Positions 10,919 to 24,172 of a stretch of 25,811 nt of DNA are shown in pieces. The notes under the pieces were generated by a model that did not search any database, was not told the origin of the DNA, and was given only the letters and a program-made list of their open reading frames with translations. This DNA is from a virus. Taxonomy: Duplodnaviria > Heunggongvirae > Uroviricota > Caudoviricetes. The translations under genes were made by a program, and so were the position numbers. Positions within the stretch are counted from its first letter, which is position 1, and the number at the start of each line of letters is the position of its first letter. Where the stretch lies: the IMG/VR virus record IMGVR_UViG_2778261502_000009, one strand, 5' to 3'.

Positions 10919-11200
10919 TGAGATTGTGGTGCTTTTTGTGGGAGTCATCCACTTACGCACTTTGTTTTGCCATGCCAGCAGTTAGCTTCTGCTGTAAAAC
11001 TATTCATGCAGCAAACCTGCACTTCACCACAATGGTTAGCATACTTTTCCTGATTAAGATTTTGCCAAATATGCTGGCCATTGTTTCATGTATTGGACCT
11101 CCTTAATTTTTATTAAAGAAATCCAATATTCACTACTCTGTCCGTATCTCTACTCAGGCATCAGCCTTCTTCGTTATCGTATACAGACGAGCGATGAATT

Positions 11201-11416
11201 TTAATCAGTAATGATGACATTTGCTGCTGCAGGACCTTTAGCACCACTCTCTATAGAGAAGGTAACCTTTTGACCTTCAAATAAGGTTCGATAATTATCA
11301 TTCTGAATCGCAGAAAAATGCACAAACACATCTTTACTACCATCAACAGGAGAAATAAAGCCGAAACCTTTATCAGCGTTAAACCATTTTACTAAACCAG
11401 TCATTTTATTTGACAT
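11201..11416 (-). CDS. cspB: Cold-shock protein (CspA family, CspB-like)
   Basis: 71 aa, [71 protein letters not shown]. Confidence 0.85.
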
Positions 11417-11716
11417 TCTACATTCCTTAACTTGAGCCTTTCGGCATAAATGGTTTGCATAACAGAAACGACTTCGTACTTAATTGGAGAGACTCAAAGA
11501 AGGAATAAGTGAATAACACCTGAAATGAGAACTGCTTTAGTAAACTACTTCGTATATCGTCTGTTCTTCAAACCGACGCAATCATTAACGCATAGTTGAA
11601 CATATGAAGCAATGTTTATTTTAGACATCCAGCCATCTTCAACCCCATCAAAAAACTATAGCTTTCTTCAGGAACGTGTGTATAGTGCGCCAAGTTATCA
11701 GTATTAAGGAATTTTT

Positions 11717-14980: not shown

Positions 14981-15136
14981 TTACTCCTCAGGTTCGTAAG
15001 CTGTGAAGACAGCGACCTCCGTCTGGCCGGTTCGGATTCGTACCTCGCAGAGGTCTTTCCTCGTTACCAGTGCCGTCACTATGACGGTTAAACAGATGAC
15101 GATCAGGGCGATTAACATCGCCTTTTGCTGCTTCAT
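14981..15136 (-). CDS. hokD: Hok-family type I toxin (HokD/RelF-like)
   Basis: MKQQKAMLIALIVICLTVIVTALVTRKDLCEVRIRTGQTEVAVFTAYEPEE, 51 aa, from ATG 15136. The track ORF extends in frame upstream to 15193 (MLDTCRLASYVPKGKEKQS-). Confidence 0.85.
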   Translation of the reverse strand: MKQQKAMLIALIVICLTVIVTALVTRKDLCEVRIRTGQTEVAVFTAYEPEE

Positions 15137-15408
15137 AGACTGCTTCTCCTTGCCTTTCGGCACGTAAGAGGCTAACCTACATGTGTCTAGCATGAAATTG
15201 GCCTCAGATTAATGTTAAGCGTCTTGCAGGACGCGTAATGTTAACTGGGGCTTTTCTCTATCTGCCTTTGGTGTTCATGCCCGAGGCAGATAGCCTCAAG
15301 CACCCGCAGCCATTCTACTTAACTACCTTTACCTCGCCAATATGAAATCAGTCAGAAAGACGATCCATAAGAACAATAGCAAGATTTCTTAATGGAGATG
15401 GATGTAAG

Positions 15409-17213: not shown

Positions 17214-17636
17214 TCACTTAAATAGATACCGAACATTTCCCTGATAAAACGACAATATGCGCTGCATAACTTCGCTCTTCCGGCACTCGCGACAGATTAT
17301 GTTTAGACGACTGTCGTAGCGACGTATTTCTCCATCAGGTAGTGACCAGATAAGGTCCGGATCAACCACAGCGGGTTTCTTCACCTTCGCCCTAGAGAGT
17401 TTTTTGCGGGCATTTTGCCAGTCCTTTCGTGCCTGTTCAGACGGGAATAACCCGTAGCCGGAGTTGTATACATAACCACTGGCAACCAGCTCTCTGGCAA
17501 GAATGCTCATCAGATATCTTGTCGCACCTGTTTTAGCTTCCAACTGTCGTAATGTCTCGCGACCGCTCTGGCGCACAAGTTCGACCACCTGCTCTTTAAT
17601 TTTTTCCCGCTCTTCCTGTGTAAAAACTTTTGCCAC
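17214..17636 (-). CDS. Hypothetical protein (140 aa), possible DNA-binding
   Basis: ORF-track entry; basic C-terminal half; no confident family assignment. Confidence 0.4.
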   Translation of the reverse strand: MAKVFTQEEREKIKEQVVELVRQSGRETLRQLEAKTGATRYLMSILARELVASGYVYNSGYGLFPSEQARKDWQNARKKLSRAKVKKPAVVDPDLIWSLPDGEIRRYDSRLNIICRECRKSEVMQRILSFYQGNVRYLFK

Positions 17637-17676: not shown

Positions 17677-18642
17677 TTATCCCCTGAAACCAGGCGGAAT
17701 TTCTGTATCCGGTTCAGAAATATGATTCACACAACGCTGTACAGGTGAACGTCCCAAGCGGATGACCAGTTCGTCCCATTTTTCGCGGAGTTTTGACGGG
17801 CTCATGATGTTTTTTACCCAGAATGGATCTCGCTGTACCCGACCAAACATTTCGCAAATTTGTCTGTGGCTTCTGCCATCCAGCATCCGCATTGTGCGCA
17901 CGTCATTGGCCCAGGCTGTCCAGTTAGGCTCTTTTGGTCGCATGATCTCTCCATCGTCGCTGGCAGCCTGTTCGTAAAGGTTCACGATCCGCCCCCAAAT
18001 CCACTGCGCACACGCCAAATCCTCCCTGCTACCCCACTGGCGTTTTTTCGCACTAAACACAACCGCGTCGGGGTTCCGGGTTAAAAAATCCTGTTCAGCG
18101 GTCTGCGGGTCCGGTTGCGAAGCTTCCGGACGAAAAGTGTTTTTATTCTCTGTAGTAATCTCTGTTGTATTCTCTGTAAGATCATCAGGCCATTTTGACC
18201 CGATGACATTGGGTCGTTTTGAACCAATGGAGCGTTTCATTTTGACCTCTTCCATCGTGTCATTTTGACCTGATGGAGCGGCGCATTTTGAACCGATGGA
18301 TTCGTTCAATTTGCCACCATCTAAAAGCTCGCTCCCATAGTTGATCGTGTAGAAATTGGTCATATCACGCTTTGATTTATTGAGCTTTTCACAACGCAAA
18401 AGCCCCAGCGTTTTCAGACTTGCAAACGCGCGCTTTAACGTTGACTCTGACCAGAATGGGAACTGTTCCAGCCATTGTTCCGTTGTGTTGTAAATCCAGC
18501 GAACACCATCACATTCCATGCCGGAATTGGTATCTCTCAACCAGTAATGCAACTGCTGCAACACAATGGCTTCATTTAAGCCAATCTTCATCGCAAGCTG
18601 TGTGTTTATAACCAGTGGGCGTTCAGCAAAAAGAAGGCTCAT
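17677..18642 (-). CDS. Phage replication initiation protein (O-like replisome organiser) containing the origin iterons
   Basis: ORF 17677..18696; ATG 18642 gives MSLLFAERPLVINTQLAMKIGLNEAIVLQQLHYWL... (winged-helix-like N-domain). The coding sequence contains a 23-bp-periodic iteron array (18191..18320) and encodes a repeated SIGSK motif, as lambda O contains ori. Confidence 0.6.
   Translation of the reverse strand: MSLLFAERPLVINTQLAMKIGLNEAIVLQQLHYWLRDTNSGMECDGVRWIYNTTEQWLEQFPFWSESTLKRAFASLKTLGLLRCEKLNKSKRDMTNFYTINYGSELLDGGKLNESIGSKCAAPSGQNDTMEEVKMKRSIGSKRPNVIGSKWPDDLTENTTEITTENKNTFRPEASQPDPQTAEQDFLTRNPDAVVFSAKKRQWGSREDLACAQWIWGRIVNLYEQAASDDGEIMRPKEPNWTAWANDVRTMRMLDGRSHRQICEMFGRVQRDPFWVKNIMSPSKLREKWDELVIRLGRSPVQRCVNHISEPDTEIPPGFRG
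18191..18320. repeat. Iteron array (putative origin of replication), 5-6 copies of CATTTTGA(A/C)C..GATGGAGCG at about 23-bp spacing
   Basis: Read directly: cattttgacc at 18191, 18238 and 18261, cattttgaac at 18284, and degenerate copies at 18217 and 18307. Adjacent AT-rich segment 18133..18180 has TCTCTGTA repeats. Confidence 0.7.
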
Positions 18643-19144
18643 AATTCCATCCAGCTTTTTGTTGGTATTGCAGTCGATACGCAAGTTTGAAAGCAATTGC
18701 TTTTTCTATAAGTTCGTCAGTTTCACGATCCACTACGGCAGGATCAGCAAAAAGCAGTCCGGACTCCACCACATCGCCATATTCTTTGTTTAACCCGGCG
18801 ATCATGTACGTGATGCTTTTTCCGTCACTAATTTCACGATACAACCTGAAATCATTAATCCGGATAGCCTCCATAATTGCAGGCACTAGCGCCGTGAACT
18901 TTTCACGCTTATCCCTAGTGTCGATAGCCTTCCAGCGTTCGAATATCTTCACTCGATTAACGCCAAGCGCTCGCTGATCAACCGCGCCACCTTCATCTGT
19001 GACACGCTGAACATCGATGTTCGGGCGCTCTTTCAAAGCCCAGAATGCTTCAGTGATTAATATCGTCGCCTGCTCCTGTGTCATTCCTGGTCGACATATC
19101 CAGGCATCCAGAGCCTCACGAGCCTGTTCAGGAGTGATTTTCAT
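18623..19144 (-). CDS. Hypothetical protein (173 aa) immediately downstream of dicC
   Basis: ORF-track entry. Overlaps the dicC 3' end by 17 nt and the replication gene start by 20 nt. No motif recognised. Confidence 0.45.
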   Translation of the reverse strand: MKITPEQAREALDAWICRPGMTQEQATILITEAFWALKERPNIDVQRVTDEGGAVDQRALGVNRVKIFERWKAIDTRDKREKFTALVPAIMEAIRINDFRLYREISDGKSITYMIAGLNKEYGDVVESGLLFADPAVVDRETDELIEKAIAFKLAYRLQYQQKAGWNYEPSFC

Positions 19145-19358
19145 TGTTCAATCGCCCCGCCCGCTTCGTCTTACGATATTCGTCATAAACTTTGGGATCA
19201 TACTGAAGCTCCCCGCCAGATGCCTCCTGTAGACGCATCGCGCGACCTTCAGGAACCAGTATCCCCCAAGCAGCAACACTTGCCAGTCTCACTCCTGCGG
19301 CATTGGCAAGCTTTGTTTTGCTGCCAAAAAAAGTAATTGCGTCAGCTTTAAGCATCAA
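19128..19358 (-). CDS. dicC: Cro-like repressor DicC
   Basis: 76 aa; ...LVPEGRAMRLQEASGGELQYDPKVYDEYRKTKRAGRLNNENHS matches my recollection of K-12 DicC. Divergent from dicA. Confidence 0.8.
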   Translation of the reverse strand: MMLKADAITFFGSKTKLANAAGVRLASVAAWGILVPEGRAMRLQEASGGELQYDPKVYDEYRKTKRAGRLNNENHS

Positions 19359-19368
19359 AGCCTCCTAT

Positions 19369-19386
19369 TGTTAGACTTTTCTAACA
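19369..19386. promoter_or_regulatory. Operator palindrome TGTTAG-N6-CTAACA in the dicC/dicA intergenic region
   Basis: tgttagacttttctaaca read directly; a second perfect copy lies at 19880..19897. Confidence 0.65.
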
Positions 19387-19435
19387 TTATTGTGCGCGGG
19401 ATACCTAAGTCAAGAAAAATTAGAATTACCTAACT

Positions 19436-19843
19436 ATGGATACAAGAACCCTAGGCCAGCGAGTTCTGGCGCGACGAAAAGAATTACGCTTAACACAACG
19501 AGAAGCTGCGCGCCTCGCTGGGGTTGCTCACGTCACAATTTCACAATGGGAAAGAGACGAAACCCAGCCAGTCGGAAAACGATTGTTTGCTTTAGCGGAT
19601 GCTCTGAAGTGCTCACCTACATGGCTAATGTTTGGTGACGAAGACAAGGCACCAGTGCCGGCACAAGAACTTCATGTGGAAACAGAGCTAACTCCCAACC
19701 ACAAAGAATTGATCGAATTATTCGATGCTCTTCCATCTTCCGAGCAGGAAGCCTTGCTGTCTGAAATGCGCGCAAGAGTAGAAAACTTCAACAAACTCTT
19801 CGAAGAAATGCTTAAAGCGCGTAAAAATAAATCAATAAAATAA
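19436..19843 (+). CDS. dicA: cI-like HTH repressor DicA
   Basis: 135 aa. XRE-type HTH (LTQREAARLAGVAHVTISQWERDETQP); C-terminal ...EMRARVENFNKLFEEMLKARK resembles K-12 DicA. Confidence 0.8.
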   Translation: MDTRTLGQRVLARRKELRLTQREAARLAGVAHVTISQWERDETQPVGKRLFALADALKCSPTWLMFGDEDKAPVPAQELHVETELTPNHKELIELFDALPSSEQEALLSEMRARVENFNKLFEEMLKARKNKSIK

Positions 19844-21003: not shown

Positions 21004-21061
21004 TTTCTGGTGACGTTTGGCGGTATCAGTTTTACTCCGTGACTGCTCTGCCGCCGTTTTT
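21004..21061 (+). ncRNA. dicF: DicF small RNA (ftsZ-targeting), ending in an intrinsic terminator
   Basis: tttctggtgacgtttggcggtatcagttttactccgtgactgctctgccgccgttttt matches the DicF sequence as I remember it. GGCGG...CCGCC stem followed by a T-run. Located between the ydfB/C-like gene and dicB. Confidence 0.65.
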
Positions 21062-21700: not shown

Positions 21701-24172
21701 ATGAGTAAAGTCTTTATTTGCGCCGCTATTCCTGACGAACTGGCAACAAGGGAAGAAGGCGCTGTGGCTGTAGCCACAGCCATTGAAGCTGGCGACGAAC
21801 GCCGTGCTCGAGCAAAATTTCACTGGCAATTCCTGGAACATTATCCGGCTGCTCAGGACTGCGCTTATAAATTTATTGTCTGCGAGGATAAACCTGGCAT
21901 ACCCCGCCCTGCCCTCGATTCATGGGATGCTGAATATATGCAGGAAAACCGCTGGGATGAGGAGTCTGCTTCTTTTGTCCCGGTTGAGACTGAATCCGAT
22001 CCGATGAACGTCACTTTTGACAAGCTGGCCCCTGAAGTACAGAACGCTGTCATGGTTAAGTTCGACACATGTGAAAACATCACCGTTGATATGGTGATTA
22101 GCGCACAGGAATTGTTGCAGGAAGACATGGCAACATTCGACGGACATATCGTTGAAGCGTTGATGAAAATGCCAGAAGTTAACGCCATGTATCCGGAGCT
22201 TAAGTTGCACGCCATTGGGTGGGTTAAGCATAAATGTATTCCTGGTGCTAAATGGCCCGAAATTCAGGCAGAGATGCGCATCTGGAAAAAACGTCGCGAA
22301 GGTGAACGCAAGGAAACCGGAAAATACACGTCTGTTGTTGATCTCGCCCGCGCCAGAGCCAATCAACAGTACACTGAAAATTCAACAGGAAAAATCAGCC
22401 CGGTCATTGCTGCCATTCATCGCGAATACAAGCAGACATGGAAAACACTGGATGACGAACTGGCCTACGCTCTCTGGCCTGGTGATGTGGATGCCGGAAA
22501 CATTGACGGCAGCATCCATCGCTGGGCAAAAAAAGAAGTTATCGACAACGACCGCGAAGACTGGAAGCGTATCTCGGCATCAATGCGCAAACAGCCTGAT
22601 GCCCTTCGCTACGACCGCCAAACTATTTTTGGCCTTGTCCGTGAGCGTCCGATCGACATTCACAAAGATCCCGTAGCACTGAACAAATATACCTGCGAAT
22701 ACCTGACGACAAAGGGCGTGTTTGAGAATGAAGAAACAGACCTGGGCACTGTTGATGTTCTCCAGTCATCAGAAACACAAACTGATGCAGTGGAAACTGA
22801 GGTATCTGATATCCCAAAAAATGAAACCGCGCCGGAAGCTGAACCATCTGTAGAGCGTGAGGGGCCGTTCTATTTCCTCTTCGCAGATAAGGACGGAGAA
22901 AAATACGGTCGCGCAAACAAACTTTCTGGTCTGGATAAGGCACTGGCTGCTGGCGCCACTGAAATCACAAAAGAAGAATATTTTGCCCGAAAAAATGGCA
23001 CATACACGGGCTTACCGCAAAATGTAGATACTGCTGAAGATTCAGAACAACCAGAGCCGATAAAAGTTACCGCTGACGAAGTAAACAAAATTATGCAGGC
23101 AGCCAATATCAGCCAGCCTGACGCCGATAAGTTGCTTGCTGCATCACGTGGTGAATTTGTTGAAGGGATTAGTGACCCGAATGATCCGAAATGGGTTAAG
23201 GGGATCCAGACCCGCGATTCTGTGAACCAGAACCAGCATGAATCGGAACGGAACTACCAAAAAGCGGAACAAAACAGTCCAAATGCGTTACAAAACGAGC
23301 CAGAAACGAAACAGCCTGAACCAGTGGCGCACCAGGAAGTGGAAAAAGCCTGCACCGCCTGCGGTCAGACCGGCGGCGGCAACTGCCCTGATTGTGGCGC
23401 GGTGATGGGCGACGCAACATACCAGGAAACATTCGATGAAGAGTATCAGGTTGAAGTTCAGGAAGATGATCCGGAGGAAATGGAAGGCGCTGAACATCCA
23501 CACAAGGAGAACACTGGCGGCAATCAGCATCACAATAGCGATAATGAAACTGGCGAGACGGCAGATCACCCAATTAAGGTGAACGGTCATCACGAAATCA
23601 CATCCACCAGCAGGACGTGTGACCATCTAATGATCGACCTTGAAACCATGGGAAAAAATCCTGATGCCCCGATCATCTCAATAGGTGCAATATTTTTCGA
23701 TCCGCAAACCGGAGATATGGGACCGGAATTTAGTAAGACTATCGATCTGGAAACTGCTGGCGGAGTCATTGATCGGGACACCATTAAATGGTGGCTTAAG
23801 CAATCACGCGAAGCGCAATCTGCCATTATGACCGATGAAATCCCGTTAGATGATGCACTGTTACAATTGCGGGAATTTATCGACGAAAACTCCGGTGAAT
23901 TTTTTGTTCAGGTTTGGGGAAATGGAGCCAACTTCGACAACACGATTTTGCGCCGTTCATACGAACGGCAGGGGATCCCCTGCCCGTGGCGTTACTACAA
24001 CGATCGCGATGTACGCACAATCGTTGAGCTGGGGAAAGCCATAGACTTCGATGCCAGAACGGCTATTCCATTCGAAGGTGAGCGCCATAATGCACTTGAT
24101 GACGCCCGTTACCAGGCAAAATACGTTTCAGTTATCTGGCAAAAACTGATCCCGAGTCAGGCTGATTCTTAA
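21701..24172 (+). CDS. Large acidic protein with a C-terminal DEDDh (DnaQ-like) 3'-5' exonuclease domain (YdfE-like position)
   Basis: 823 aa. Exo motifs [21 protein letters not shown] and [13 protein letters not shown] in the last ~190 aa. Upstream zinc ribbon [16 protein letters not shown]. The N-terminal ~600 aa have no recognisable family. Confidence 0.65.

Follow-up and report, generated by a model that had tools for sequence, protein, structure and literature searches.

The DNA considered here is a stretch of 25,811 nucleotides (nt) from a virus of the class Caudoviricetes (IMG/VR record IMGVR_UViG_2778261502_000009), which we refer to in its entirety as the window and whose coordinates are given on the plus strand. 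On its minus strand, it carries a gene for an O-like replication initiator, and within this gene lies a set of repeats for which a first-pass annotation of the sequence had proposed an origin function. We find that these repeats very probably are a real iteron-type origin in the style of phage lambda, embedded in the gene of its own initiator in a lambdoid prophage of the Qin site.

The repeats with a period of 23 base pairs (bp) that had been claimed for the O-like gene are indeed present, and six units can be located. These dyad-symmetric iterons occupy 18183-18321 with start-to-start spacings of 24, 23, 23, 23 and 23 bp, and their consensus on the gene-sense strand, CATCGGGTCAAAATGACCCGATG, contains the dyad GGTCA-AAA-TGACC, whose inverted arms flank an A-tract. 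Five copies of the core TTTTGA[AC]C lie within 18193-18286, as compared to four in the rest of the window on both strands taken together. The signal is well above chance, with a lag-23 autocorrelation over the array of 0.55-0.57 against 0.256 +/- 0.047 in the background, and none of 5000 shuffled sequences exceeded 0.468. The one periodic signal of the window that exceeds it was considered and rejected, namely the strongest lag-21 autocorrelation at about 23201 (23190-23340, plus strand), which stems from an A/C-rich low-complexity stretch in an exonuclease gene, without discrete repeats or a repeat family.

In the sense direction, the iterons are followed by an AT-rich segment, as they are in lambda. 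It likewise had been noted earlier as a flank with repeats of its own, and we can now describe it as holding three 12-bp units, TATTCTCTGTAG, that fill 18144-18179 (in sense ACAGAGAATACA, ACAGAGATTACT and ACAGAGAATAAA). A pattern of two such units was matched in none of 100 shuffles. No 40-mer of the gene is less stable than 18140-18179, which has a free energy (dG) of -44.3 as compared to a window mean of -53.4 +/- 4.6; it is 72% AT, and its sense strand is 70% purine. The trinucleotide CTG is present on the template strand of every 12-mer unit. A perfect match to the DnaA-box consensus, TTTTACACA, occurs at 17617-17625 on the minus strand, just inside the start of the following DUF977 gene and about 50 bp 3′ of the stop codon of the O-like gene, and chance alone would give roughly 0.07 such matches in the 1151 bp scanned. 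This is the sole perfect DnaA box, it lies outside the repeats, and the IHF-like sites found in the same analysis all carry one mismatch; we have used neither in our argument.

With respect to the initiator itself, a mechanically called open reading frame (ORF) runs from 17677 to 18696 on the minus strand, where it extends to a TTG codon at 18696, while the start of the protein of 321 amino acids (aa) falls at 18642 and matches the RefSeq start in the prophage of E. coli strain NRG857C, which is 99.8% identical. The protein matches PHROG 391, 'replication initiation O-like', with an E value of 3e-93. Pfam gave no family for it, neither for the whole protein nor by domain, even at E<=10, such that PF04492 (Phage_rep_O) is absent, and Pfam and NCBIfam together yielded nothing usable beyond the DnaT-like tail discussed below. 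An AlphaFold2 (AF2) model predicts a winged helix (H-H-beta-beta-H-H-beta-beta) across residues 14-100 and a second, helical domain across 183-295, with disorder between the two (109-175) and in the tail. The repeats, from 18144 to 18321, encode aa 108-167, which the model places in the disordered linker between the two domains. Among PDB entries, the best Foldseek matches for the N-terminal domain are the N-domains of plasmid initiators (5kbj, 'Rep-DNA complex'; 4pql and 4pt7, 'initiator') and the DnaD N-domain 2v79.

The C-terminal part, by comparison, has an identifiable relative in lambda O. A profile alignment (hhalign) pairs aa 147-296 with lambda residues 135-272 at a probability of 99.5% (E 5.7e-23, 36% identity over 138 columns) and covers this part of the protein alone. 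At its start, TENTTEITTENK meets lambda DTKDTITKEKRK, the peptide that is encoded by the AT-rich segment of the lambda origin. Since the homology to lambda O is limited to the C-terminal part and begins at the 12-mer-encoded peptide, the gene is a mosaic, in which a non-lambda N-terminal domain with its own iterons is joined at the 12-mer array to a C-terminal domain of the lambda-O type. The same junction divides off alternative C-terminal domains (Phg_2220_C) in relatives from Klebsiella and Pantoea. The gene also lies in a pR-cro-cII-O operon like that of lambda, and the order on the minus strand is pR-like promoter, cro-like gene, cII-like/YdaT gene, O-like gene, DUF977/Ren-like gene and a gene for an Sll1717-family ATPase.

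The first-pass annotation had named as a refutation of its proposal that the repeats might not be conserved in homologous prophages, but conserved they are, in homologous prophages as well as in phages. We chose 75 distinct loci by homology of the N-terminal domain alone (45-100% identity), ranging from Enterobacterales to contigs labelled as Firmicutes. In the 260 nt that follow the N-terminal domain, the best period is 22-24 bp in 60 of the 75 loci, and strongly so in 43, as compared to no strong case in the part encoding the N-terminal domain and a single one in the part encoding the C-terminal domain. The iteron sequence itself changes with the lineage of the N-terminal domain (GGTCAAAATGACC, GGGCAATTTGCCC, GGACAATTTGTCC and GTGCAAATTGCAC being examples), such that the cross-match of iteron consensus sequences is about 0.36 for N-domains of at least 70% identity and about 0.04 below 60%. 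All of these lineage-specific cores are dyad-symmetric with an A/T centre. In Pantoea phage AH07, for instance, the iterons are different (GGGCAATTTGCCC) while the period remains 23 bp, and the layout is also kept in Klebsiella phages and in mEp460_4F5. A layout consisting of a winged-helix N-terminal domain, iterons of about 23 bp, an ACAGAGAnTAC array and a swappable C-terminal domain recurs in the 75 loci, which stem from many taxa.

The number of iterons may vary in nature. A natural initiator variant of 290 aa lacks exactly 93 bp (23+23+23+24), corresponding to four units (18206-18298 in the window), and has two iterons left. The junction of the deletion lies in a shared CATCGG, as could result if iterons 5 and 1 had recombined, and the variant may represent real variation in iteron number, though it may also have arisen by the collapse of repeats in a short-read assembly.

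As for the 12-mer array, a 47-nt query from the window finds DNA of 81-92% identity inside the replication-initiator genes of phages of Staphylococcus, Bacillus, Geobacillus, Acinetobacter, Pseudomonas, Burkholderia and Vibrio. Phages from Enterobacteria, Acinetobacter, Pseudomonas, Bacillus, Staphylococcus and Lactobacillus have kept the nucleotide sequence of the ACAGAGAnTAC array in their initiator genes, and the array is found with unrelated N-terminal and unrelated C-terminal domains. In a second sample of 80 viral contigs, which were chosen by the 12-mer pattern alone, the array lies in the same frame (read as T-E-x-T) within an ORF of 260-450 aa in 78 cases. The best upstream period is 23 bp in 62 of the 78 contigs with enough upstream sequence, and at least two unrelated groups of N-terminal domains as well as several singletons are represented.

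A further peculiarity of the system is that the initiator seems to stand alone. No P, DnaC-like or DnaB-like gene follows it, the next genes being those for DUF977 and the Sll1717-family ATPase. The same replication module is carried by the complete 45-kb genome of phage HannyBb and by the phage record mEp460_ev081; in HannyBb, no helicase or loader is annotated in the whole genome, and the O-like gene is its sole annotated replication gene. The gene order of the window, and likewise that of mEp460_ev081 and HannyBb, agrees with the definition of an 'O-only' lambdoid module given in PMC12315714. According to that report (Genome Res 2025), O-only modules are found in phage LLS and in 34 of 314 lambdoid phages, and their mode of replication is not yet understood.

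In place of a loader gene, the initiator carries a tail. Its last 20 residues, QRCVNHISEPDTEIPPGFRG, are identical at 14 of 20 positions (70%) to residues 160-179 of E. coli K-12 DnaT, which are the C-terminus of that protein, and the BLASTP match to DnaT is confined to them. Similarity to full-length DnaT was not found: the NCBIfam model NF002770 gave 16.2 bits against a cut-off of 201, and its match, too, is confined to model positions 160-179. It is because of this tail that some phage records bear the label 'Primosomal protein I'. A tail of the form ..IPxGFRG also ends relatives with a different C-terminal domain, the O protein of LLS ends in KIPEGFRG, and overall the tail is present on initiators with at least two unrelated C-terminal and several N-terminal domains. 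It occurs in 19 of 32 loci from Enterobacterales, whereas the 42 loci that come from other taxa all lack it. For initiators from the 12-mer-selected contigs, DnaB, IstB/DnaC or lambda-P families were found in none of the 33 clusters formed by the next three ORFs after 20 tail-bearing initiators, as compared to 16 of 56 downstream ORF clusters for 38 tail-less ones (Fisher p 3e-4, with clusters that are not independent). A classification of the downstream genes locus by locus, by phmmer and the Walker-A motif, was crude and missed several helicases, and the Pfam cluster counts were used instead. On account of the O-only setting, the identity to DnaT and these counts, we propose tentatively that the tail recruits the loading machinery of the host; that the initiator brings in the helicase in this way is a possibility worth pursuing, though the odds are against it.

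Homologues labelled as Firmicutes end in other short acidic and aromatic tails, for example ..EEDFRFDDET and ..NKDDLPF, the latter of which looks like the C-terminal tail of SSB. Because non-enterobacterial homologues carry such tails of their own, host-specific docking peptides suggest themselves as a general feature of these initiators.

For the working of the origin, we envisage the following sequence of events. By analogy with lambda (PMC7466680), dimers of the N-terminal domain would bind the iterons, one dimer per dyad, and the bound dimers would wrap the DNA into a complex resembling the O-some. The resulting stress, together with transcription through the gene from the pR-like promoter, would melt the adjacent ACAGAGAnTAC array, and the host DnaB helicase would be loaded at the melted array. 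Because there is no P, DnaC-like or DnaB-like gene, the initiator would have to recruit the helicase-loading machinery of the host directly, and we would guess most readily that its lambda-O-type C-terminal domain, its DnaT-like tail or both serve this purpose.

One may ask whether the iterons, as true binding sites of the initiator, might serve mainly in autoregulation, copy control or exclusion, with replication starting elsewhere or by recombination. The lack of a loader gene would fit this idea, as would the natural 290-aa variant that retains just two iterons, and PMC12315714, in which O-only replication is called not understood, describes that LLS is helped by RecBCD and Chi. However, the arrangement of iterons and 12-mers, their orientation and their position between the domains are those of the lambda origin, and a melting-prone array is conserved beside the iterons, which sites for binding only would not need. 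Furthermore, two lambda iterons plus the AT-rich region are reported to suffice for unwinding (PMC7466680). We therefore hold a mainly regulatory role to be unlikely and continue to favour an origin.

A different explanation concerns the 12-mer array alone and attributes its conservation across phyla not to the melting of DNA, but to service as a homologous 'linker' at which N- and C-terminal initiator modules are shuffled. In its favour, in initiators that share an N-terminal domain and differ in the C-terminal one, the mosaic breakpoint falls directly after the array, the array is common to initiators with unrelated domains on either side, and the annotated recombination points of lambda fall in the same part of O. 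Against this, selection for evolvability is weak, and the near-invariance of the array from Enterobacteria to Firmicutes, its fixed place by the iterons and its low duplex stability fit a direct role better. The two roles are not mutually exclusive, but shuffling as the reason for the conservation strikes us as improbable.

Beyond their arrangement, both kinds of repeat are constrained as DNA and not as protein. Since 23 bp cannot be divided into whole codons, a single iteron motif is translated in three frames (codon phases 1, 3, 2, 1, 3 and 3). This also qualifies the SIGSK motif that had been pointed out earlier as an echo of the repeats in the protein: it is real, with SIGSK occurring twice and VIGSK once, but is limited to the three units in codon phase 3, while the others are read in the remaining two frames as SGQND, EVKMK and GGKLNE. 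Among eight distinct homologues (from elements of E. coli, Klebsiella, Citrobacter, Raoultella and Izhakiella), the three codon positions of the iteron stretch are about equally conserved (identities of 0.90/0.89/0.875), whereas the adjacent N-domain part shows an ordinary coding signature (0.89/0.95/0.70). Conservation instead tracks the iteron register, with 0.96-1.0 in the core CAAAATGA and 0.73-0.88 in the spacers. For the 12-mers, codons were counted in loci that had been picked solely by N-domain homology, and the sample is therefore unbiased by the DNA motif. Within the arrays, Glu is encoded by GAG 97 times and by GAA once, as compared to 277:364 elsewhere in the same genes, and Thr is encoded by ACA or ACT, ACC/ACG making up 1 of 167 codons inside, where ACC itself does not occur, and 327 of 574 outside. 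CAGAGA is retained even though the first base of the codon varies (ACA/CCA/TCA/GCA), and in the position matrix of the 12-mer, third codon positions are more informative than the adjacent first or second ones. That the repeats should be the mere by-product of a low-complexity, repetitive protein linker (with its SIGSK and TTEN/TTEI motifs) and have no role as DNA is thus very improbable, for although they fall in a linker that the AF2 model predicts as disordered, the 12-mers are nearly always read in one frame and SIGSK does recur in the protein, this idea is contradicted by the unrelated peptides that one iteron motif yields in three frames, by the conservation of third codon positions to the same degree as first and second ones, by the near-absence of synonymous codons in the 12-mers, by a variable first codon base next to an invariant CAGAGA and by the nucleotide-level match of the 47-nt query to initiator genes of Staphylococcus, Bacillus and Acinetobacter phages.

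Several points nevertheless weigh against the origin as we picture it. That the origin fires, that the initiator binds the iterons and that the DNA unwinds at the 12-mers are inferences. The AT-rich segment lies just about two standard deviations below average stability, which places it in the top 3% of the window. Confidence in the AF2 model is moderate (mean predicted local distance difference test, pLDDT, 59.8), the fold matches of the N-terminal domain are weak (E 0.03-0.3, TM about 0.5), and a profile search of the PDB found no significant sequence match of this domain to a solved structure (none at E<=1). The comparative counts ignore shared ancestry. The C-terminal domain of lambda O is known for binding P, and yet there is no P gene here. 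As for the tail, residues 154-179 of DnaT are described as structurally uncharacterised and as affecting the cooperativity of single-stranded DNA binding, and no binding partner is assigned to them in the DnaT literature consulted (PMC4132743; sections of PMC13377028). Lastly, the better growth of LLS with RecBCD/Chi, as given in PMC12315714, raises the prospect that recombination-dependent replication may contribute in the O-only group.

With 96-99% identity, the window matches a lambdoid prophage that occupies the Qin site of E. coli, beside rspB/ynfA in strain NRG857C. The description of this copy as structurally defective is correct. Its collinearity with the complete prophage of NRG857C breaks off at 1298, within the capsid-protease gene, and the truncated capsid gene is followed at about this point by an ORF for a tail-fibre protein (102-1367, minus strand; Collar and Phage_fiber domains); head-completion and tail genes have therefore been deleted. 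The regulatory and replication genes are full length, and the origin, which had been called intact, bears this out at the level of its sequence, with two to four positions that differ from the origins of mEp460_ev081 and HannyBb. Whether it would be induced in the classical manner is another matter: in Pfam, the repressor matches helix-turn-helix (HTH) families only and has no peptidase domain, from which we infer that induction by self-cleavage in the SOS response is not to be expected and that derepression would need another trigger. A scan for promoters and terminators produced the pR-like site alone, with terminator-like matches at chance level. The positions of all these features are compiled in Table 1.

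Table 1. Probable origin, initiator domains and neighbouring genes in the window (plus-strand coordinates)
Feature	Position	Strand	Basis or remark
O-like replication initiator, 321 aa + stop	17677..18642	-	ORF list; PHROG 391; RefSeq start
N-terminal winged-helix domain, aa 1-107, presumed iteron-binding	18322..18642	-	AF2 model; fold matches
Iteron 6	18299..18321	.	sense GATGGTGGCAAATTGAACGAATC; degenerate, farthest from AT-rich segment
Iteron 5	18276..18298	.	CATCGGTTCAAAATGCGCCGCTC
Iteron 4	18253..18275	.	CATCAGGTCAAAATGACACGATG; best dyad of the set
Iteron 3	18230..18252	.	GAAGAGGTCAAAATGAAACGCTC
Iteron 2	18207..18229	.	CATTGGTTCAAAACGACCCAATG
Iteron 1	18183..18205	.	CATCGGGTCAAAATGGCCTGATG; adjoins AT-rich segment
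AT-rich, purine-skewed segment with three 12-bp units	18133..18182	.	presumed unwinding element
C-terminal helical domain, about aa 181-296, lambda O C-domain homologue	17755..18102	-	hhalign; AF2 helices 183-295
DnaT-like tail, last 20 codons	17680..17739	-	BLASTP; NCBIfam DnaT model positions 160-179
pR-like promoter TTGACT-16-AATAAT	19386..19413	-	consensus scan, pattern match only
cro-like gene	19128..19358	-	Pfam P22_Cro
cII-like/YdaT gene	18623..19144	-	Pfam YdaT_toxin; PHROG 163 'CII-like'; directly upstream of initiator
DUF977/Ren-like gene	17214..17636	-	follows O-like gene
Sll1717-family P-loop ATPase, 495 aa	15409..16896	-	between replication module and hokD
Repressor gene	19436..19843		divergent from pR-like operon

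Some of the neighbouring genes deserve mention in their own right. The Sll1717-family ATPase gave a weak match to the PADLOC candidate PDC-M28C (E 4e-5) and is absent at this position in HannyBb, and it may be a defence-type cargo gene; for the initiator and the DUF977 gene, PADLOC returned no defence model. An Rfam search over the whole window found nothing in the origin. Elsewhere, it identified DicF RNA (21005-21056, plus strand), the sok antitoxin RNA of hok/sok (15134-15305, minus strand) and two thermoregulator leaders of the cspA type (8289-8674 and 11185-11577, both minus strand), all of which are ordinary cargo of Qin-type prophages.

That an origin can lie inside an O-like gene is already known. 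This variant is set apart by the family of its N-terminal domain, by its iteron sequence, by the regularity of the 12-mer array and by a DnaT-like tail combined with the lack of a loader. Literature searches for the 12-mer and its peptide turned up nothing relevant, and neither the array nor the tail was found described in the literature that could be searched, which omits most subscription journals; older descriptions may exist. The module is by no means rare, since it has matches in 3990 of 5426 complete E. coli genomes, 1746 of which hold at least 80% of it, and yet, among the top matches, RefSeq lists the initiator as a 'hypothetical protein', and no Pfam family covers it. With the origin recognized, there is a way of annotating such prophages and of predicting which of the cryptic ones are still able to amplify in situ when derepressed, and firing in place would co-amplify the nearby dicB/DicF, hok/sok and cold-shock genes.

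Two linked readings would carry this further, though we offer them as speculation that is more apt to fail than to hold, namely that a DnaT-derived peptide replaces the P-type loader in O-only phages and that the ACAGAGAnTAC array is a specific shared origin element and more than AT-rich filler. If this is true, the peptide ..SEPDxxIPPGFRG would connect the origin complex with the primosome of the host or with the DnaB-DnaC loading pathway. Within our sample, tails of this type are restricted to elements of Enterobacterales and never stand beside a helicase or loader gene. The tail is thus a simple and directly testable candidate for helicase loading in O-only phages, a process that PMC12315714 calls not understood. 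The array, if it is specifically shared by temperate phages from Enterobacteria to Staphylococcus and Bacillus, would imply recognition by a factor that is common to these hosts, be it a helicase, a primase, for which one may point to the CTG on the template strand of each unit, or another conserved factor. Being common to phages of Gram-negative and Gram-positive hosts, the 12-bp array could mark phage origins, and it may indicate a shared step in origin opening.

Among known systems, the closest parallels are the lambda origin and the six-iteron origins of the Stx phages 933W and P27, which likewise lie inside the initiator gene between the parts coding for the N- and C-terminal domains and consist of four to six dyad iterons with a TCAAAAyGA-like centre at a spacing of 20-24 bp (PMC7466680). 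Compared with lambdoid iterons, as the first-pass annotation had suggested, those of the window have such a lambda-like centre and a similar spacing. In lambda, the iterons (ATCCCTCAAAACGAGGGA) are spaced by 20, 24 and 23 bp and are followed by an AT-rich segment, which is also purine-skewed and 3′ in the sense direction, and the pR-cro-cII-O operon and the homologous C-terminal domain complete the likeness. The window differs from lambda in the N-terminal domain, which is of another family and lacks PF04492 (on which lambda O scores 5.7e-36), in the iteron arms (GGTCA/TGACC as compared to TCCCT/AGGGA), in the regular 12-bp array that forms its AT-rich part, in the absence of a P gene and in the extra DnaT-like tail of the initiator. 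Of the hallmarks of a lambda-type origin, it thus displays the position in an in-gene linker, at least four dyad iterons about two helical turns apart, an AT-rich segment after them and the homology in the C-terminal domain, but neither a PF04492 N-terminal domain nor a P-type loader or phage helicase next to O. With these provisos, the lambda-style in-gene origin proposed at the outset is supported by the PHROG 391 match, the C-terminal homology, the operon, the dyad iterons, the position of the AT-rich segment and the conservation of the repeats in homologous prophages and phages.

The O-only phage LLS resembles the window in having a single O homologue without helicase or loader, iterons within the gene and an ..IPEGFRG tail. 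It differs in its N-terminal domain, in its C-terminal domain, which is Phg_2220_C-like as judged by eye, in its 15-bp in-frame iterons and in lacking a 12-mer array. Neither the origins nor the tail are described in the parts of PMC12315714 that were consulted. In its O gene (gene 44, 10516-10589 of its stretch), we find five 15-bp in-frame repeats, GCATCAAAATCTGAT, that encode SDASK five times over and that are likely to be its iterons.

A further parallel is provided by the initiators of staphylococcal plasmids (5kbj, 4pql and 4pt7), whose winged-helix N-terminal domain, solved together with iteron DNA, is the best, though weak, structural match to that of our initiator (E 0.03, TM about 0.5). 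We take these to be members of the RepA_N family, in which the rep gene contains the origin, with the iterons in its central part, and the C-terminal domain is host-specific. These initiators belong to plasmids and not to phages, they are not known to us to have a 12-mer array, and the Pfam scan of our initiator, which gave no family at all, does not place it among them. The DnaD-like 'replisome organiser' initiators of Firmicutes phages, finally, include homologues of the N-terminal domain with 45-55% identity that are so annotated in Staphylococcus, Bacillus and Listeria phages. They differ in their C-terminal domains and tails, and many are followed by DnaB- or DnaC-like genes, but they share with the prophage the same layout of iterons and then 12-mers.

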